DNA from: a virus
Taxonomy: Duplodnaviria; Heunggongvirae; Uroviricota; Caudoviricetes
DNA: 40,812 nucleotides
IMG/VR virus record: IMGVR_UViG_2541047766_000005
Direction: 5' to 3' (one strand)
Below the pieces are notes generated by a model that saw only the letters and a program-made list of their open reading frames with translations, did not search any database and was not told the origin of the DNA. The first letter of the stretch is position 1. Every line of letters begins with the position of its first letter. Below are positions 3,403 through 40,812 of the stretch, one piece after another. The position numbers were made by a program, and so were the translations under genes.

Positions 3403-3749
3403 TCAGGAACCAACTCAATCTGCTCGTCGTTTTCTGCCTCTGTCCCTTCGATAACGTCAGGTATAAGAAACCATTCAATTCTGCTGAACCACTTCCCAAC
3501 AAAGTCGTAGAATTTTGCTCGTCTCTTACTCCAGTCTACCGGAGTGCCTTTCTTTAATGCTTTCATCCAGTCGCTAAAAGCGCCGTTATCAAGGCGTATA
3601 TCACAAGGGAACATGGCAATCTTTTTCATCTGCTCTGGTCTGGCAAATGAAACAAAAGCCCCACTATCACGGTAAAGGGCTTTAATAAGCATATCTGTAG
3701 GGGCATGCTCATCACCCCATATTGGGCTGCCGTGAAAGTGGATGGTCAT
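3216..3749 (-). CDS. Hypothetical early-left protein (N-terminal portion of a possibly frameshifted gene)
   Basis: 177-aa ORF; its 3' third overlaps the next ORF (2950-3402) in another frame. Confidence 0.5.
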   Translation of the reverse strand: MTIHFHGSPIWGDEHAPTDMLIKALYRDSGAFVSFARPEQMKKIAMFPCDIRLDNGAFSDWMKALKKGTPVDWSKRRAKFYDFVGKWFSRIEWFLIPDVIEGTEAENDEQIELVPDWLKSKAVPVWHTTNQLNVFYAFLENLNGWRLDAAAHTGTYALNGGNREWMKFLLRFISIVI

Positions 3750-3807
3750 ATTATCCCCATATAAAAGAAATACCCGCGAGTGCGAGGATTGTTATGTAAT
3801 ATTTGGT

Positions 3808-4089
3808 TTAATCATCTATATGTTTTGTACAGAGAGGGCAAGTATCGTTTCCACCGTACTCGTGATAATAATTTTGCACGGTATCAGTCATTTCTCGCAC
3901 ATTGCAGAATGGGGATTTGTCTTCATTAGACTTATAAACCTTCATGGAATATTTGTATGCCGACTCTATATCTATACCTTCATCTACATAAACACCTTCG
4001 TGATGTCTGCATGGAGACAAGACACCGGATCTGCACAACATTGATAACGCCCAATCTTTTTGCTCAGACTCTAACTCATTGATACTCAT
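3808..4089 (-). CDS. Hypothetical Cys-containing small protein
   Basis: 93-aa ORF with AAGGAG Shine-Dalgarno 8 nt upstream of ATG; several Cys pairs (possible metal binding). Confidence 0.55.
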   Translation of the reverse strand: MSINELESEQKDWALSMLCRSGVLSPCRHHEGVYVDEGIDIESAYKYSMKVYKSNEDKSPFCNVREMTDTVQNYYHEYGGNDTCPLCTKHIDD

Positions 4090-5084: not shown

Positions 5085-5244
5085 TGGTTGCCTCCTTTGC
5101 GCCACATCGCATTCAGATATTTGTTGTCATTAACAGAACCGAAACTCTTTCTCTTAAGCAATTCCTCTCTCGATGGCATTGGCTTTACGCGTTGGCGAAT
5201 AATCATTTCTGCCGGAAGAATGCCGGGATTGTATGAAAGTCCTC

Positions 5245-5526
5245 TCATGATTTACTCTCCATGAACTGGTCAACAGCCATGCTAAGTGATACACCTAAAG
5301 TCTCGATATGCTGCTGAATATCCTGTAGCGTCTGCGCCTGAGATAACAGGATTTCACGGTTGCATAACTCTTTGACCAGATGCTCAAACTTGCTGTAATG
5401 ACCGATACGACTTAGTGTTTCTTTCCCTGCATTCTCGCCTTCTTTGATAATTCCTCTTTCGCTAAGAATCAGATCGTGTTTGGTTCCGGTGATAACGTAT
5501 TTGCCGAGGTCGATGTTTAGCTTCAT
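5245..5526 (-). CDS. Hypothetical early protein
   Basis: 93-aa ORF co-oriented with the leftward early operon. Confidence 0.5.
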
Positions 5527-5542
5527 TGTTAATTATTCCATG

Positions 5543-5857
5543 TTAATTTATTCGTATGCCTGCTCTTTCTTCATCGAGTCTTTTTAGCTTGTATCGCATA
5601 GCCCTTACTGAATAAATTGAACGGCAGGTTGCAATTGCTATTTCTTCTGCGGAGAACTTACCGAAAAGTGATACTTCGGCTCTTGTCCAGCGTCTTCCAC
5701 GAAGTCGGCTAACAATGTCAGCACCAATCCTTGTTGCTTTCGCCATTACTGCTTTTTCAGTCCTTTCCAGTTTTTCAGCGATAACTTCAACTGGCATTGT
5801 CGCCGCCACTTCGCGCAAGAAATCGACTTCCCATTTCTCCCATGAAGTCTTTTTCAT
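5543..5857 (-). CDS. Hypothetical early protein with two internally similar helix-rich segments
   Basis: 104-aa ORF, co-oriented, 12 nt after preceding gene. Confidence 0.5.
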   Translation of the reverse strand: MKKTSWEKWEVDFLREVAATMPVEVIAEKLERTEKAVMAKATRIGADIVSRLRGRRWTRAEVSLFGKFSAEEIAIATCRSIYSVRAMRYKLKRLDEERAGIRIN

Positions 5858-5868
5858 AGTCGAGACCG

Positions 5869-6351
5869 TTATTTGATAAGAAGTGAAGGTTTCCCAACTT
5901 TGAGTTGAGCGCCGGGGATATTTATTCCTGCTTTTAGTTGGTGTTTGATTGCCAGTTTGTCGGCTTTAATTGTCGTTTCAAACTCAACGTATTCAGGAGG
6001 AAGGGCGCTTGAGTCGATGATTTCTACAGTTTCTGACGGTTTGCGGATTGTTACCTGGTGAATACCTGCTCGAATCTTTTTCTTGCCAACCATTTCAAGC
6101 GATGACGCTATATACGCCATAATGCTGTCAATCTTATTTTGAATTACTGCGGCTCGCTCATTTAGTGACTGTGCCTCTTCCTTGAGGCGTTCAGCATAAC
6201 CAGATTCATTTTTAATAATGGCAAGAAGTTGCTCTATTTTATCGGTAAATTCTCCTTCCATGCCTTCTATTGTGTCAGCAATCATCTCTGGCTCTAAATC
6301 TGAATCTATCAGCTTTGCGTATTCATTGGCAATTTCATACAGTTTGCTCAC
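5869..6351 (-). CDS. Siphovirus Gp157-like protein (commonly paired with RecT/Erf recombinases)
   Basis: 160-aa ORF directly downstream of recT; GTG start at 6351 6 nt after GGAGG (track ORF starts at TTG 6357); family assignment from memory. Confidence 0.55.
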   Translation of the reverse strand: MSKLYEIANEYAKLIDSDLEPEMIADTIEGMEGEFTDKIEQLLAIIKNESGYAERLKEEAQSLNERAAVIQNKIDSIMAYIASSLEMVGKKKIRAGIHQVTIRKPSETVEIIDSSALPPEYVEFETTIKADKLAIKHQLKAGINIPGAQLKVGKPSLLIK

Positions 6352-8702: not shown

Positions 8703-8906
8703 TCAAATAAGTGGTTTGCTGCCTAATTTCATTTTCTGGCGACCAACACAAGTCACACCCATTTCACTGCGTGGCTTGCTGTAGTAAAGATTGTGCCTGT
8801 CTTTTAACCACATCAGGCTCGGTGGTTCTCGTGTACCCCTACAGCGAGAAATCGGATAAACTCTATTCACCCCTACAGAGAGCAAAAGAGAAACGCCGAT
8901 GAACAA
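8703..8906 (-). pseudogene. Fossil of a lambda-type N gene (only the C-terminal ~28 codons are N-like)
   Basis: ORF ends ...YYSKPRSEMGVTCVGRQKMKLGSKPLI, closely resembling the lambda N C-terminus (...YSKPGERGITCSGRQKIKGKSIPLI); upstream part has no N similarity and overlaps the SieB-like start. Confidence 0.45.
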
Positions 8907-9480
8907 CTCATGGTGGCAGGAACTAATGCATTTTTTCCTGCAAGGAATGACACTTAAACAGTTGATTCATATGCTAATCATCCTGATCATATTGATTATT
9001 GTTATGCCGGTAAGCGTAAAAGAATGGATAAACCTGCATAATCCAGAAATCCTTCCTCATTATTGGATGTATTACATCCTGTTGTTCTGCGTTAGCTATG
9101 TGCTTAACGGTGTAGTTAATTCCGCTTATCACGCTGTGACTGAAAGAATTGAGGTATCCGCTGCTCAGAAGCGCAAATCCAAAGAAGAAAAATATGTGCA
9201 AGATTTGTTTGATTCGTTAACTCTTGGAGAAAGAGCGTATTTGGCATTCGCTGTAGCCGCTAATAACCAGCTACAAACGGAAAAGGGAGCTCATGAATCA
9301 ATTTCATTGCTCAAAAAAGGCCTCCTCGTTCGAAGGCCTCCTGCTGTTGGATATCCTGATACCGACCGTTTTATTATCCCGGAAAGCTATAGACATGAGT
9401 GCTACATTAGGTTTGCCGGGAAGGCAGACAGCCTTATGGATGAACTTATCGCTCAGGATAAGCATGGCAAAAACAAGTAA
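8899..9480 (+). CDS. sieB: SieB-like superinfection exclusion membrane protein
   Basis: 193-aa ORF on the opposite strand inside the early-left operon between ral and N; two N-terminal hydrophobic helices; N-terminus MNNSWW... recalled as SieB-like. Confidence 0.6.
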   Translation: MNNSWWQELMHFFLQGMTLKQLIHMLIILIILIIVMPVSVKEWINLHNPEILPHYWMYYILLFCVSYVLNGVVNSAYHAVTERIEVSAAQKRKSKEEKYVQDLFDSLTLGERAYLAFAVAANNQLQTEKGAHESISLLKKGLLVRRPPAVGYPDTDRFIIPESYRHECYIRFAGKADSLMDELIAQDKHGKNK

Positions 9481-20538: not shown

Positions 20539-20799
20539 TCAACCCCTGTTGAAATTCTCTTTTGCTTCATTAATGAGATCTGAAGCGATCCGAAAGCTAT
20601 TAGGGTTGGAATTGCTAATCAAACCTTTAACTGTTTCTTCTAATTCAATCAGCGCCTGATTGCTGTGCGCAGACCTTGCAACGTTAGTCAATAAGGCAAC
20701 CAAAATTGCCTCATGGGCAATGGCATGTTCTTTATCAGTTGTTTCTATGCGAAGCGGGCTGTTGGATGATCGTAGGCTTGTTTGGTTGAACGAAGACAT
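20539..20799 (-). CDS. Hypothetical protein, antisense to late operon
   Basis: 86-aa ORF with AGGAGG SD 4-5 nt upstream of ATG; convergent with rha. Confidence 0.55.
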   Translation of the reverse strand: MSSFNQTSLRSSNSPLRIETTDKEHAIAHEAILVALLTNVARSAHSNQALIELEETVKGLISNSNPNSFRIASDLINEAKENFNRG

Positions 20800-20852: not shown

Positions 20853-21059
20853 ATGTCCGACATCTACCAAATCACGCTAACCACCCAAACAGGCGAAACC
20901 TTCACTGGCAAGATGTCACGACGTCAGCATGAGCTGGTTAATGGCTTTGTGCCGCTGGCGACCGAGACAGGCGAGTAGCTGTACTTTGCTCCTGGTGATG
21001 CGAAGCGCGTGCAGTTCACGCCAGTAGCGGCAGGACAGACAGAGCAAACGACGGAGTAA
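20853..21059 (+). pseudogene. Small ORF interrupted by an in-frame amber codon (TAG at 20976-20978)
   Basis: ATG 20853 opens MSDIYQITLTTQTGETFTGKMSRRQHELVNGFVPLATETGE, then TAG, and the same frame continues for 26 codons to TAA. Confidence 0.3.
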
Positions 21060-21156
21060 CCTATGGCTAACGATGGAGAGCCTAGGTAATGTCCGCCAAT
21101 TATCTTTCCCGACTCTGGCAACTGGCATCCATGAGCCTTTTTACATATGCTGAGTA

Positions 21157-22062
21157 TTAACTGATATATCCATGAGCTTTGAGATAATTTTCTGCAATAA
21201 TCATACCTACTGGATTGATGACTAGTGAGTCAAGTTCTGTAAGGGTTGAAATACCAAAAGAGTCGAGAACTAATTTTGTAGCTGGGAATGCTTCATAAAA
21301 TGATGCATCAGATGTAAGAGTGTCATAACCCGTTCTTTTTGATAATAACTCTAAGTAATTGATATTATATATTTTATCTGAGAAAAATACGCCTTTAATT
21401 TCTAATAGCTGCTGATTTAGGCGTTTGAGGGTGAAATGTTCTCCAAGAAATTTTATATAATCTGTTTCATAAACAGCATACATTGACCTATGGATCATGT
21501 AATTTTCTTCCAAGGAAATGTTAGGTAGTGAAAAATGAGTACTTTTTTTCTCTGCAAGTTCTGTGATATTTATACTTCCTACCATCTTATTGATTGAACG
21601 TAAAAAATATACAAATGCCAAAAACTTAATATCATTAGTGGTCAGTCTGGATGTTGTATCTAACGCTTGATCGATCAAAATGCTTTGGTCTTCTTGATCG
21701 TTTTCAATTTTAGTAACTATTAACTCCTTAAGAAGTTCTGATTTTGCATCAAACCCCTTTCTTGCGACCTGAACGACTGCTTGATTGAGGGTGTACTGAA
21801 TATCGGGATCAGCGAGTTTTGCTCTTAGTTTTTCATCAACATCTTTAGATAGTTTTTCTGCAATTTGGTGACCAAATTCTTGAGCCCGTGAGTCGACTAA
21901 AGCGAATGCATCTTCACGAAGCGAAGCCATTTCACTTTTGACCATTAACTGGCAAATAGCCATGACCTCAGTAGTGGTGTTGCCAAAGTAGGCATCACCG
22001 GTAACTTGTATAGCTGAGGAGTTATCACCCACACTTTGACCGGATTTCTCGAATAAGCTCAT
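21157..22062 (-). CDS. Unknown-function 301-aa protein of an AT-rich antisense accessory cassette (candidate defence/exclusion effector)
   Basis: Long ORF in strongly AT-rich DNA, opposite to the late operon, between lysis module and terminase; ATGA overlap with upstream small membrane gene; no P-loop, HEPN or other motif I can recognise. Confidence 0.7.
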   Translation of the reverse strand: MSLFEKSGQSVGDNSSAIQVTGDAYFGNTTTEVMAICQLMVKSEMASLREDAFALVDSRAQEFGHQIAEKLSKDVDEKLRAKLADPDIQYTLNQAVVQVARKGFDAKSELLKELIVTKIENDQEDQSILIDQALDTTSRLTTNDIKFLAFVYFLRSINKMVGSINITELAEKKSTHFSLPNISLEENYMIHRSMYAVYETDYIKFLGEHFTLKRLNQQLLEIKGVFFSDKIYNINYLELLSKRTGYDTLTSDASFYEAFPATKLVLDSFGISTLTELDSLVINPVGMIIAENYLKAHGYIS

Positions 22063-22304
22063 TCTTTGTCCCTTTCATTAATAGTTATGTTGCCACCAAT
22101 TTGTATACCGCTAGAGTTATCGCCGATTGTTTGGCTAACACCTTGCTCTTTAGCTTTGTTGCTTTTTAGATTTGCTAAGGCTGTTAGAAAAACGACCAAA
22201 CTCGCTAATGCTGCTAGCGCTGTGGATAATGTTTGACTGGTTATGGCTTGATAGCCAAAGCCTAAAGCCGAACAAAAAGATACAAATACGATTAATTTTC
22301 TCAC
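22059..22304 (-). CDS. Small membrane protein of the same accessory cassette
   Basis: GTG start at 22304 6 nt after GGAG (track ORF starts at ATG 22361 inside the terS start region); two hydrophobic segments; C-terminal GDNSSGIQIGGN motif echoed at the N-terminus of the 301-aa partner. Confidence 0.6.
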   Translation of the reverse strand: MRKLIVFVSFCSALGFGYQAITSQTLSTALAALASLVVFLTALANLKSNKAKEQGVSQTIGDNSSGIQIGGNITINERDKE

Positions 22305-22325
22305 GAAAATCTCCAGAGATAAAAC

Positions 22326-22853
22326 ATGGCACTTACTGACAAGCAAGAAATGTTCTGTCACGAGTACCTCATCGATTTAAACGCCACGCAAGCGGCTATT
22401 CGTGCGGGGTACAGCGCAAAGACAGCTAACCGTACCGCATCCGAAAACCTGTCAAAACCTGACATCAAGTTAAGAATCGCCGAACTGAAAGCGCAACGCA
22501 ATGATCTTGTTGGTATTAATGCAGAATATGTACTTAATCGCCTTCTTGAAATCGACCAGATGGATGTGCTCGACATTCTTCTGCAAAACGGTGAGTTAAA
22601 GCCCATTAAAGACTGGCCTAAGGTATGGCGCACAACGCTATCAGGAATGGATGTTGTGGAGATGGTATCCGCAGATAGTGCCGCACTTCTGAAGAAAATC
22701 AAATGGCCTGATAAGGTTAAAAACCTCGAACTTCTTGGTAAGCATGTTTCTGTTCAGGCATTTAAAGAACAATCTTCTCACGAGCTAACCGGCAAAGACG
22801 GCGGCGCAATCCAGATAGAAACATCACCGATGAGCACTCTATTCGGAAAATGA
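22326..22853 (+). CDS. Terminase small subunit (Terminase_2-type)
   Basis: 175-aa ORF, N-terminal LTDKQEMFCHEYLIDLNATQAAIRAGYS typical of small terminase subunits; overlaps large subunit start. Confidence 0.8.
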   Translation: MALTDKQEMFCHEYLIDLNATQAAIRAGYSAKTANRTASENLSKPDIKLRIAELKAQRNDLVGINAEYVLNRLLEIDQMDVLDILLQNGELKPIKDWPKVWRTTLSGMDVVEMVSADSAALLKKIKWPDKVKNLELLGKHVSVQAFKEQSSHELTGKDGGAIQIETSPMSTLFGK

Positions 22854-38070: not shown

Positions 38071-39537
38071 TTAATTGCAGTTGAATGTAATGTTTTTATC
38101 GTAAACAAAAATCTTCTTATCTCCGACGTCAATAACCTTTGATGGATTACCAATCTCTTTAATTGTTATATTTCTCATAACCTCGTCATCTGTAATTATG
38201 AAATTTCCTCCGCGCTCATACCAATAGTTTTTTGACAACCATTTATTGCATGCAAGTATATTCAAACCTCGGTTTACATCAATCGGAGCAATTGATATGT
38301 CTCCATCTATACTTGCTGATGAAGCAAACCAGAAAGATGCATACCCGTTTGTGAGGTTATTCTGCCTTACAGTGTGTTTTATCTGATTTATAATATCATT
38401 AGAATTGTCTTTTTTTTCATGCATATAAATAGAACAAAAGAGAATAAATGTTGTAACAACCCCTAATGCGATGAATTTCCACCCTCTGGAGTTGTTAGAT
38501 CTGCCAATAACAACAGGTGCTAGTATAAAAAATGGAACGATATATCTTATAGTCCATTCATCTATTGGACGGTTACTTGCAAGGTATGCTGGTATCATTA
38601 TAATACAAGCTATACATATAGCCATATTGATCATGGAGGTAAAGAATATTTCCTTTACTGACATTGCAACTAATATAAGAAGTAAAATCATTACAACAAA
38701 ACAAAAAACAGAAATAAGCGCTGTAATATCAGAAGGTGGCTTGCCAAAGAAGAAAGCTCCACTGTATAGGAGGAATCCTTTTACGAATAAGTATAAATTA
38801 TTCAGGATATCATCAAATGCAACAAATGTTGGATCTGGAACGCCTGGCAAAATGTACCAGTTATGAGCTCTTGCGTACATGGTCATAATTTTTGATGCAA
38901 CATATGCAAATATAGTTGCAACTAGTATGATCAGATTTTTTTGGCTTTTGGTTTTTACTATAAAAATCACTGATGATATTGCTACTGGTGCAATAATGAG
39001 TAGCTTTATGATGTCATCACTGAAACAAGCTAGAGCTAACACTAAAATATAAAGAGATAGAGAAATTAACGATCTTGTTTTGGAAAAATTGTCTAACATT
39101 ATGAAGCAAAACAACATGGATACATATGTGCCGACATGTATCACAGGTATTAATACGTTTAATACTGCAAACCCAGAAGGCAGCGCAACGCAAAATGAAA
39201 TGGCCCATAACGATGAAAGCCTTTCTTTTGAAAGATAAAATGTCATCAATGTAACCATTGAATACATAATTGCCGGTATGCAGTATGCTTGGTACTGTCC
39301 GTACCAGAATACCTTTGAAGCAAGCCCGTACCATATTATGTCTGTAAAATAGAATGATACTGTAGAGAGATACCATCCACTAAGCGTCCAATTTCCGTCC
39401 GCAATGTCCTTACCCTCAAGAAGTCCAGAAACAGCATCCGAACTTGGCAAAATCTGTTTTGAAATCGAGGCGTAGAAGAAAGTCAGGAATATAAATCCAA
39501 TGATGTATATGGCTGTTTTTTTTATATTTAAAGTCAT
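38071..39537 (-). CDS. Serotype-specific O-antigen glucosyltransferase (GtrC-type polytopic membrane protein)
   Basis: 488-aa multi-pass membrane ORF, very AT-rich, immediately downstream of gtrB in the gtr operon. Confidence 0.75.
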   Translation of the reverse strand: MTLNIKKTAIYIIGFIFLTFFYASISKQILPSSDAVSGLLEGKDIADGNWTLSGWYLSTVSFYFTDIIWYGLASKVFWYGQYQAYCIPAIMYSMVTLMTFYLSKERLSSLWAISFCVALPSGFAVLNVLIPVIHVGTYVSMLFCFIMLDNFSKTRSLISLSLYILVLALACFSDDIIKLLIIAPVAISSVIFIVKTKSQKNLIILVATIFAYVASKIMTMYARAHNWYILPGVPDPTFVAFDDILNNLYLFVKGFLLYSGAFFFGKPPSDITALISVFCFVVMILLLILVAMSVKEIFFTSMINMAICIACIIMIPAYLASNRPIDEWTIRYIVPFFILAPVVIGRSNNSRGWKFIALGVVTTFILFCSIYMHEKKDNSNDIINQIKHTVRQNNLTNGYASFWFASSASIDGDISIAPIDVNRGLNILACNKWLSKNYWYERGGNFIITDDEVMRNITIKEIGNPSKVIDVGDKKIFVYDKNITFNCN

Positions 39538-39538
39538 T

Positions 39539-40453
39539 TTACTTATCCTTTAGAATGTATCTTGGTCGCTGCTTAACTTCAACATAAATTCTTCCTATAT
39601 ACTCTCCAAGAACTCCTATGCCTATTAACTGAACTCCACCAAGAAACAATATTGATACAATGATAGAAGGGTAACCTGGAACACTATTTCCAAACATCAA
39701 TTTATCAGCAATCATCCATGCTCCATAAAGGAATGATAAGGTTGCCACAAACAGGCCTATATAAGTCCACATGCGCAAAGGGAAAGTAGAAAAGCTAGTG
39801 ATCCCTTCCAGCGCCAAGTTCCATAGCTTCCATCCATTGAACTTTGTGCTTCCTGCAACGCGTTCTGCTCGCGCATATTCTACGACATCGGTTCGACCAC
39901 CAACCCAGCTCAGCACACCCTTCATAAACAGGTTTCGTTCTGGCATGAGCTTAATGTTTTCTACTACTTCGCGAGACATGAGCCGGAAGTCGCCAACATT
40001 CTCTTCTATCTGAGGGTTGCTGATTTTGTTATGAAGTTTATAGAACCACTCAGCAGATTTACGCTTCAGCCTGCTGTCAGTGGAGCGGTCAGAGCGTTTA
40101 GCCAGAACCATATCTGCACCGGCCTGCCATTTCTCTATCAAGTGAGGAATAACTTCTATAGGGTCTTGCAGATCAACGTCAATCGGGATAATTGCCTCCC
40201 CGGTAGCATGGTCCAGACCTGCGAACAGGGCAGGTTCTTTGCCGAAGTTACGTGTGAACGACAGCGAAACCACAAGCGGGTCGGCAACAGCAAGCTCGTT
40301 GATAATTGATTCTGTAGCGTCTTTGCTGCCATCGTTTATGAAGACTATCTCGACTTCATGCTGCTGAAGCCCTTCAAATTCGCGCACGGTTTTATAAAAA
40401 ATAGGTATCGTGGCCTCTTCGTTAAAGACCGGAACGACTAAAGAAATTTTCAT
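39539..40453 (-). CDS. gtrB: Bactoprenol glucosyltransferase GtrB (GT2 family)
   Basis: 304-aa ORF with GT2 N-terminal domain (VVPVFNEE...DGSKD) and two C-terminal transmembrane helices. Confidence 0.9.
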
Positions 40454-40812
40454 TTCGCATCCCTAAAGACAATGAACTTTGAATAGACGAAACCGCACAC
40501 CAGGCTGATGGCGGAGAAGGTGACAAGAGTTATCATCGGAGGAAGTGCGCATCTATCAGCAGCCCATCCAACAGTAGCACTCAGTGTTCCCATGAACCCG
40601 ACATATAACATGTAGCGCATCGTTGTAGTTGATGCTTTGAATGTGAATTTTGCATTCGCGAAGAAGCTAAAACTCACAGCCACAACGAAACCTGCGAAGT
40701 TTGCCAGAGCCTGATTGGTATGCGCGGCATAGATACATACACCAAAAACCACCCAGTGTATAAGTGTGTTCAGCACACCAATCGAGGTGTACCTTGCAAA
40801 TATATTTAACAT
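40450..40812 (-). CDS. gtrA: GtrA flippase (bactoprenol-glucose translocase)
   Basis: 120-aa four-helix membrane ORF matching GtrA of serotype-converting phages; start codon at the last three bases of the window. Confidence 0.88.

Follow-up and report, generated by a model that had tools for sequence, protein, structure and literature searches.

A two-gene prophage module whose small membrane protein and putative sensor share a motif resembling bacterial amyloid signalling sequences

In amyloid signalling, a receptor motif of about 20 residues templates the same motif on a cell-death effector, a principle that is established in fungi and animals. To our knowledge, its bacterial examples are restricted to the NLR/Bell pairs of filamentous species and, at the functional level, to one Escherichia coli system, Bab/Agp. 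Here, we describe two adjacent genes in a stretch of viral DNA of 40,812 nucleotides (IMG/VR record IMGVR_UViG_2541047766_000005), referred to as the window over its whole length. They encode an 81-residue membrane protein and a 301-residue protein of the LPO_1073/Vpar_1526 family, and each protein carries one copy of the same motif, at the C-terminal end of the small protein (tail) and at the N-terminal start of the large one (head). By analogy with the known pairs, we propose that these genes constitute a prophage-borne module of the abortive-infection type, in which a sensor and a membrane effector would communicate through a homotypic, probably amyloid-like motif; we give this proposal a probability of roughly 0.5. 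What sequence comparison establishes is a conserved motif pair, a co-evolution of tail and head at the protein level, a similarity to bacterial amyloid signalling sequences (BASS) and an exchangeable effector part. A previous inspection of the window from its letters alone (hereafter the sequence-only reading) had noticed the shared motif, but it had seen neither the named family of the large protein, nor the family-wide presence of the motif, nor the likeness to BASS.

Both genes lie on the minus strand, opposed to the late operon, and comprise the following features.

22059 to 22304, minus strand: small gene, encoding the 81-residue membrane protein that is the proposed effector (RefSeq WP_001228633.1, annotated as hypothetical only), with a GTG start and a TGA stop overlapping the ATG of the next gene.
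22311 to 22314, minus strand: Shine-Dalgarno-like GGAG, placed 6 nt before the GTG start codon of the small gene, read from the sequence.
22149 to 22301, minus strand: two hydrophobic helices (residues 2-23 and 26-52), a predicted transmembrane hairpin of the small protein, from the AlphaFold2 model and the hydropathy profile.
22077 to 22142, minus strand: tail motif of the small protein, GVSQTIGDNSSGIQIGGNITIN, residues 55-76, with Q58 and Q68 invariant.
22059 to 22062, minus strand: ATGA overlap of 4 bp between the stop of the small gene and the start of the large gene.
21157 to 22062, minus strand: large gene, encoding the 301-residue LPO_1073/Vpar_1526-family protein that is the proposed cytoplasmic sensor (WP_001544378.1, whose RefSeq name gives the same family).
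21979 to 22047, minus strand: head motif of the large protein, KSGQSVGDNSSAIQVTGDAYFGN, residues 6-28, with Q9 and Q19 invariant.
21178 to 21984, minus strand: all-helical LPO_1073/Vpar_1526 domain, residues 27-295, from the NF045477 match and the AlphaFold2 model.

The start giving 81 residues is favoured over a longer listed open reading frame of 100 residues because the GGAG lies 6 nt before this GTG. The 4-bp overlap recurs in 13 of 16 enterobacterial loci and suggests translational coupling of the small and large genes.

The two-helix small protein ends in QTIGDNSSGIQIGGN and the large protein starts with QSVGDNSSAIQVTGD; in fuller form, the tail reads ...GVSQTIGDNSSGIQIGGNITINERDKE and the head MSLFEKSGQSVGDNSSAIQVTGDAYFGN. 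When ...QTIGDNSSGIQIGGNITIN... of the tail is aligned with ...QSVGDNSSAIQVTGDAYFGN... of the head, 8 of the 12 residues are identical in the GDNSS.IQ..G core, and 9 of 15 if the preceding Q-x-[IV] is included. At the DNA level, 23 of 36 bases match in the 12-codon core and 33 of 66 over 22 codons. The Smith-Waterman score of the pair is 52, a value reached by 2 of 5000 shuffles of both proteins (Gumbel p ~1.4e-3). Against chance, the case made by this single pair is modest when taken alone and overwhelming once the comparative data given below are added. Both peptides reported by the sequence-only reading were found on the minus strand and the DNA strings it cited were verified; the spacing of about 75 bp that it gave for the two copies has to be corrected, the 12-residue cores being separated by 59 bp from end to start and by 95 bp from start to start. 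The I-Q dipeptide is encoded by ATA-CAA in both copies (22103-22108 and 22008-22013), ATA being a rare isoleucine codon in E. coli; this may be a coincidence, the overall codon identity being at expectation.

The 301-residue protein matches the NCBIfam profile NF045477 with 97.5 bits (cutoff 45, E = 9.9e-28), its residues 27-295 covering positions 1-244 of the 257 positions of the profile. Because this match begins at residue 27, after the head motif, the motif and the obligatory small partner fall outside the available description of the family. For the large protein, each of the 63 homologues has a precomputed PF28206 match. These homologues, which share 32-100% identity and come from Escherichia, Enterobacter, Klebsiella, Leclercia, Pantoea, Serratia, Providencia and others, all begin with the motif (63/63). 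Likewise, the small protein has 28 homologues with a preserved tail (56-93% full-length identity), every one of which carries the motif, and the sole homologue without it, P0090, is a 53-residue fragment ending before the tail. Thus, a loss of the motif from the homologues of one partner, which the sequence-only reading had held to be fatal to its proposal, was not observed in these sets. In the small protein, the invariant positions of the motif are Q58, I60, S64, G66, Q68, G70, G71 and I75, and the motif residues are among the most conserved of the whole protein.

The motif extends well beyond these close relatives. A profile search of 1.84 billion representatives returned 1,582 relatives (cluster representatives) at E <= 1e-3, and the core motif was found in 126 of the 147 new representatives that were inspected (86%), with its start within the first 20 residues in 122. 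The consensus core is Q-x-V-G-x-x-S-x-x-I-Q-A-G-[GR]-D-x-x-I, with x-x-x-Q-x-V-G-x-x-S-x-x-I-Q-A-G-G-D-x-x-I as a fuller form; it contains two glutamines ten residues apart, of which the second is invariant in 56 of 56 aligned peptides and the first is kept in >90%. Besides the window, we sampled 65 loci from genomes, metagenomes and IMG/VR, 63 of which had upstream sequence; three viral scans seeded with small sub-alignments yielded nothing. A small hydrophobic open reading frame with a tail resembling the downstream head lies directly upstream in 61-62 of these 63 loci, from Enterobacteria, environmental metagenomes, human gut and IMG/VR. The exceptions are L032, where this open reading frame is disrupted, and L040, where an HNH-like domain is fused to the large protein. 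What flanks the pair changes between loci (terminases of different types, helix-turn-helix genes and, in Serratia, an IS3-family transposase); both genes thus travel together as one unit.

Tail and head also vary together. For 29 non-redundant tail/head pairs, we compared the alignment scores of cognate and non-cognate combinations, and obtained means of 49.8 and 32.2, respectively. The observed mean was reached by none of 100,000 permutations (z = 9.5), so that the similarity, which the sequence-only reading had wished to see measured against chance, exceeds it across loci as it does in the shuffles of the window pair. The excess persists when the enterobacterial clade is removed. Composition was considered as its cause and rejected, shuffled heads scoring 20.9 as compared with 49.8. 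Over the aligned core, the mean identity is 44.8% for cognate pairs, 32.5% for non-cognate pairs, 38.9% between the tails of different loci and 35.8% between their heads; a tail is therefore closer to the head of its own partner than to orthologous tails. Moreover, several pairs have private variants found on both sides, namely QKGGIGS.NIQ (L055), ASS.S..IQS.RDTN (L062), LQAD.I...IN.G (L034), GD.S..YQA.RDI.I (L046) and S[MV]NVQI (L044). In a clade from the human gut (L033-L045), which has a single-transmembrane partner, the motif has drifted to VNQTFNVSGDHNTIVGI in the tail and VNTTQNAQFGSHDNKFVSQ in the head, and a G-[SD]-H-[DN] element is common to both.

This correspondence is not explained by copying of DNA. 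Among 291 identical aligned residues from the 29 loci, 130 are encoded by identical codons, whereas 126.6 are expected from local codon usage (p = 0.36). A recent duplication or gene conversion is rejected by this test, and because codon identity equals the expectation, the match between tail and head must be kept by selection acting on the proteins. The junctional duplication envisaged by the sequence-only reading thus finds no support as a recent DNA event; in the window itself, the Ser-Ser codons are TCT-AGC in one copy versus TCC-TCA in the other. Tails and heads show one consistent difference, the residue before I-Q being mostly glycine in tails and alanine in heads. In addition, several enterobacterial pairs (including L004, L005 and L007) have a lysine in the tail where the head has an aspartate (G-K-N-S versus G-D-G/N-S), a difference that could provide charge complementarity if tail and head stack in register.

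Among the small partners, two or more unrelated classes can be told apart: two-helix hairpins whose loop is KPGFDS-like (GFGYQA in the window), and single-helix proteins that start with ...EWVFSG[IV]G.... Single-gene forms with fused transmembrane segments also exist, and are rare (2 of 147 representatives). In P0200, the single-helix partner class is fused to the motif and the family domain, while P0217 (404 residues) has two transmembrane helices, then a pair of motif-like copies (AGDSSNIVLVNG and GGDNSNIIKTEGNNN) spaced by about 25 residues, and then the family domain. Because the N-terminus of P0200 is homologous to a free-standing class of small partners, this protein looks like a fusion and not like an ancestral unsplit state. 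Fused homologues, for which the sequence-only reading had recommended looking, are therefore real, but their rarity and fusion-like character, together with the wide distribution of the split form, do not favour the gene-fission remnant that it had considered as a general explanation. In P0199, P0229 and locus L040 (104-1522), an N-terminal HNH-like domain (CHIEGG...H-N/H-H-K) stands in place of the membrane partner, and a degenerate motif connects it to the family domain. With this domain of P0199 as a query, only HNH proteins fused to PF20275 and devoid of the motif were retrieved, a result that is uninformative for split HNH effectors; we take PF20275 to be a C-terminal domain of ABC-three-component conflict systems. 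Since two-transmembrane, one-transmembrane, fused transmembrane and fused HNH-like partners all occur, the motif can be viewed as a connector through which a single sensor family is linked to various effectors. The occurrence of split forms side by side with single-chain ones is also described for NLR systems (bioRxiv 10.1101/2020.01.06.895854).

For the comparison with BASS, the published datasets (PMC8086366 supplement) were used; the cluster profiles were derived from a single validation subset, which comprises 36 sequences for cluster C01. The string 'QAGRD', common in the motifs of the LPO_1073/Vpar_1526 family, occurs 802 times in the published C01 file, and the C01 pattern reads ...A-S-G-x-x-R-V-Y-Q-A-G-R-D-Q-H-I-T-E-R. 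With a profile of 58 family peptides, 50% of the C01 sequences scored above the 99th percentile of shuffled decoys, as compared with 0.3% of the decoys. Conversely, the C01 profile placed 53% of the 58 family peptides above the 99th decoy percentile, with scores of up to 24.6 bits, the corresponding value for cluster C06 being 52%; in a search of these 58 peptides, it retrieved 21 at E < 0.01. When the 748 six-frame segments of the window were scanned blindly, the tail of the small protein came out top for the C01, C06 and C02 profiles, although weakly (5.8-9.9 bits). Cluster C01 is apparently BASS1, as judged from its numbering, its size and the fact that C03 shows the G-phi-Q-phi-G signature ascribed to BASS3. 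Fibril and prion formation has been demonstrated experimentally for BASS1, the most common family, and for BASS3 (Dyrka et al. 2020, bioRxiv 10.1101/2020.01.06.895854). According to the same study, cross-seeding BASS pairs are 43-56% identical, and the cognate mean is 44.8% here.

The resemblance to the NLR/Bell pairs that carry BASS1-10 concerns the organization of the locus as well as the motif. In both cases, the gene of an effector whose motif is C-terminal adjoins that of a receptor whose motif is N-terminal, the genes often overlapping by 4 bp, and the two motif copies resemble each other within a pair (9 of 15 residues identical in the window, cognate above non-cognate across loci). The core phi-Q-A-G-[RG]-D-x-x-phi is common with C01: the agreement lies in the second half (Q-A-G-[RG]-D), the first half of the motif being A-S-G-x-x-R-V-Y in C01 and Q-x-V-G-D-N-S here. 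The hosts differ as well, NLR/Bell pairs being found in multicellular Actinobacteria, Cyanobacteria and Archaea, and the present module in phages and prophages of Enterobacteria and of many uncultured bacteria. Bab/Agp, which is carried by a prophage of E. coli ECOR25, relies on an amyloid-forming motif, BASS11, shared between a C-terminus and an N-terminus and required for abortive infection against T5 (Ibarlosa et al., bioRxiv 10.1101/2024.11.07.622273). Like the window pair, it consists of two adjacent E. coli prophage genes, of which the upstream one encodes a small protein (109 residues in Bab/Agp) that begins with a hydrophobic helix and ends in a motif of about 20 residues, and the downstream one a large cytoplasmic sensor with an N-terminal copy of the motif. 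However, the sensor is here a 301-residue LPO_1073/Vpar_1526 protein, and the effector, a soluble Bell-related helical domain in Bab/Agp, is here a predicted two-helix membrane hairpin; the two systems are compared by architecture. A further likeness concerns RHIM/PP/BASS3 (PF12721), the G-I-Q-I-G of the window tail corresponding to the G-phi-Q-phi-G core, and RHIM is the only Pfam family that touches the tail peptide; the head has A-I-Q-V-T-G, and the resemblance is confined to the enterobacterial variant. In the RexA/RexB exclusion system of prophage lambda, also made of two genes, a cytoplasmic sensor activates a membrane protein with four transmembrane helices, RexB, and the cell is depolarised. 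We know of no shared terminal motif for RexB, and the likeness is functional only; no similarity in sequence or fold of the module proteins to anything annotated was detected.

In the AlphaFold2 model of the small protein, a hairpin formed by helices 2-23 and 26-52 (predicted local distance difference test (pLDDT) ~90) is followed by a disordered tail of low confidence. From the MRK N-terminus, the lysine-rich segment after helix 2 and the positive-inside rule, we infer an N-in/C-in topology that would place both ends in the cytoplasm. The 301-residue protein is modelled as all-helical (pLDDT 83, predicted template modelling score 0.80), with the exception of model residues 1-25 (protein residues 2-26), which carry the motif and have a pLDDT <50. 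No structural relative of the helical domain was found in the PDB or BFVD (Foldseek against BFVD gave nothing at E < 0.5), and sequence-profile searches gave no PDB relative. Most distant relatives align best only over query residues ~5-160; the conserved part is thus the N-terminal half, and the variable C-terminal half is possibly the sensing part. Pfam gave no match for either window protein, no NTPase or repeat domain in the large protein and nothing consistent on 50 of its distant relatives. For the small protein, there was no significant match in Pfam, NCBIfam or PADLOC; in PHROG, it matches phrog_27656, of unknown function, significantly (E = 4.8e-6) and the holin family phrog_565 not significantly (E = 0.059, 14.3 bits).

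The window (1-40812) corresponds to an essentially entire P22-like prophage, whose insertion site in E. coli lies between ybhC and ybhB. Around the module (21100-22400), its sequence and the chromosome of strain PS_131_S11 agree at 100% identity, and the record of this strain is annotated there with the same gene layout. Lysis genes and a Rha-family gene lie on one side of the module, and the gene for the small terminase subunit on the other. Among 5,426 complete E. coli genomes, 183 share the flanking terminase sequence and 13 carry the pair; with only 13 carriers for these 183 genomes, the pair is accessory. Among 50,697 phage records, the pair had no megablast match. In unrelated phages, the module occupies an accessory slot between lysis genes and terminase, in reverse orientation. 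Moreover, PDC-S47, an untested single-gene candidate of PADLOC, matches 13 of 50 distant relatives of the large protein (best E = 1.3e-6). The accessory slot and these matches lend indirect support to a role in defence.

Taken together, these data lead us to propose that the pair is a self-contained mobile accessory element ('moron') of a P22-like prophage, the LPO_1073 protein being its sensor and the small two-helix protein its effector. The N-terminus of the sensor and the cytoplasmic tail of the effector would each offer one copy of a motif of about 20 residues, rich in Gln, Gly, Asn and Ser, and recognise each other homotypically. Upon a trigger such as phage infection, the sensor would oligomerise, and its disordered N-terminal motifs would stack into a cross-beta template able to recruit and convert the tails of the membrane protein. 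The hairpins clustered in this way would then permeabilise or depolarise the membrane, resulting in abortive infection or exclusion. The same logic applies to the amyloid signalling pairs of the NLR/Bell type (bioRxiv 10.1101/2020.01.06.895854) and to Bab/Agp (bioRxiv 10.1101/2024.11.07.622273), and also to the fungal NWD2/HET-S pair, with other sensors and effectors. The steps of this scheme do not deserve equal confidence. A direct and specific interaction between tail and head, mediated by the motifs, is likely; the shared interaction strand, one of the possibilities listed by the sequence-only reading, is favoured by the terminal position of both copies, by their modelled disorder and by the locus-by-locus co-variation. 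An anti-phage role seems fairly probable, and for amyloid-like templating as the mode of interaction the odds may be close to even.

Several observations weigh against the proposed scheme. The receptor has neither an NB-ARC/NACHT NTPase nor repeats and is not an NLR, and the effector, a two-helix hydrophobic hairpin, has neither a Bell or HeLo-type domain nor another known immune effector domain (it may plausibly target the membrane, as a protein of another kind), so that the analogy is one of architecture; with these two differences, the module does not belong to the classical NLR/Bell system and yet appears to work alike. The window pair itself scores weakly on the published profiles, with 10.7 bits (C01) and 12.3 bits (C06) for the tail and 0.7 and 6.5 bits for the head. 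Membership in RHIM was considered and rejected, the tail giving 13.0 bits (E = 0.077) for a cutoff of 20, the head no match, and only 1 of 56 family peptides a match at E < 1. In PADLOC-DB 2.0, neither window protein matches any model at E <= 1, and the large protein has no PDC-S47 match. The gut clade L033-L045 has the weakest tail/head match observed (scores of 24-33). The retention of the motif in fused proteins with transmembrane segment, motif and family domain is likewise compatible with a linker of structural kind or with permanent tethering to the membrane. A consensus scan revealed no promoter serving the pair and no terminator after the 301-residue gene. Finally, the literature searched, which does not cover most subscription journals, contained no description of the module and nothing on LPO_1073, PDC-S47 or the motif strings; Vpar_1526 occurs once, in a proteome list.

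Many of the data could also be accommodated by a constitutive tether, in which the motifs zip into a stable intermolecular beta-sheet that anchors the LPO_1073 protein at the inner membrane, with neither templating nor switch, and in which the LPO_1073 domain acts at the membrane, for example by sensing or blocking the entry of DNA. Indeed, the transmembrane segments of P0200 and P0217 are attached covalently, as if membrane attachment itself were what matters; co-variation is expected of any specific interface and would be explained equally well; and the window has other membrane-associated exclusion functions, such as SieB. However, P0200 retains the motif even though a covalent tether makes a docking strand needless, and a soluble HNH-like domain is also joined to the sensor by the motif. 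Moreover, the similarity is order-dependent and specifically to amyloid signalling sequences, the tail and head regions are modelled as disordered and not within a fold, and two invariant glutamines combined with Gly/Asn turns would be typical of stacked beta-arches. We regard a tether as less likely than the proposed scheme. It is even harder to accept that tail and head do not bind each other and are handles for a third party, such as a host protease or chaperone recognising a common degron, or a phage protein. Conserved short motifs located in disordered termini are typical of degrons and short linear motifs, and both ends are exposed; but a conserved host factor would fix the motif instead of permitting it to drift in matched pairs with private variants, and cognate identity exceeds the identity among orthologous tails, which renders this explanation improbable.

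The small protein might also be a holin-like or antiholin-like component of a lysis device of the prophage itself, regulated through the motif by the large protein, which would set the timing of lysis and have no part in defence. The module adjoins the lysis cassette in several phages, class II holins resemble the small protein in size, in their two transmembrane helices and in their charged C-terminus, and phrog_565 gives a weak holin match (E = 0.059). This match is not significant, however, and the pair is transcribed against the late operon of a window that already has holin, endolysin and spanin genes. The pair is also accessory, being present in 13 of the 183 E. coli genomes with the flanking terminase sequence, and it occurs outside recognisable phage lysis regions, as in Serratia next to the IS3-family transposase. 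Such a function is thus less probable still. That the motifs have no function, and are due to chance, to a junctional duplication of recent date or to the inert remains of a gene split, is hardly credible: the shuffle p-value of the single window pair is only ~1e-3 and fused forms do exist, but the motif is kept in both partners across relatives with just 25-40% identity, its residues are among the most conserved of the small protein, no permutation out of 100,000 attains the cognate mean, and codon identity is at the expectation from codon usage.

Other features of the window and of related prophages surround the module. Between the GTG of the small gene and the divergent ATG of the small terminase subunit there are just 21 bp (22305-22325), and because of this short gap a promoter for the pair would have to sit within terS, on the opposite strand. 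A hypothetical 86-residue gene (20539-20799, minus strand) was considered as a part of the module and rejected, as it accompanies the module in the closest relatives only; an annotated pseudogene with an internal stop (20853-21059) separates it from the module. The window contains other genes for the protection or conversion of the lysogen, namely sieB (~8899-9480), ral, and a set made of gtrA, a glycosyltransferase gene and a gene for a 488-residue protein at 38071-40812 (O-antigen modification). In the Leclercia prophage L004, a gene adjoining the module (3504-3842) has a weak Pfam match to the Acb2/Tad1 hairpin, of an anti-defence sponge family; this accessory slot possibly holds a defence and a counter-defence pair together. 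In the Klebsiella prophage L005, a RelA/SpoT-domain gene (5226-5909; 353 residues) lies just past the lysis genes and may be another defence or toxin gene.

While amyloid signalling is an established principle, the literature that was searched appears to hold no description of this sensor family, its membrane effectors, this variant of the motif or the breadth of the module. The module has the same genetic signature as the known pairs with a different sensor and different effectors, and its family comprises >1,500 clusters at 50% identity, in phages and prophages of many bacteria. Thus, we tentatively suggest, at somewhat less than even odds, that LPO_1073/Vpar_1526 proteins and their small partners form a large and unrecognised class of abortive-infection systems, which would combine prion-like templating through a BASS1-related motif, a non-NLR sensor and interchangeable effectors (two-transmembrane hairpin, one-transmembrane protein, HNH nuclease). 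Even if the motif were only a tether, annotation pipelines should handle both genes as one unit. If the proposed scheme is true, a large family known by name only and its unannotated small partner would both gain a function, and the motif would be a portable adaptor. The pair would also provide a very small and tractable E. coli system (81 + 301 residues) for studying how templating opens a membrane effector, in which the matched private variants are ready-made specificity swaps and the single chain of P0217 is a handy construct for predicting how the motifs pair. Amyloid signalling would then extend beyond the NLR/Bell systems of multicellular bacteria and Bab/Agp, and would be a widespread modular adaptor of mobile elements in unicellular bacteria.

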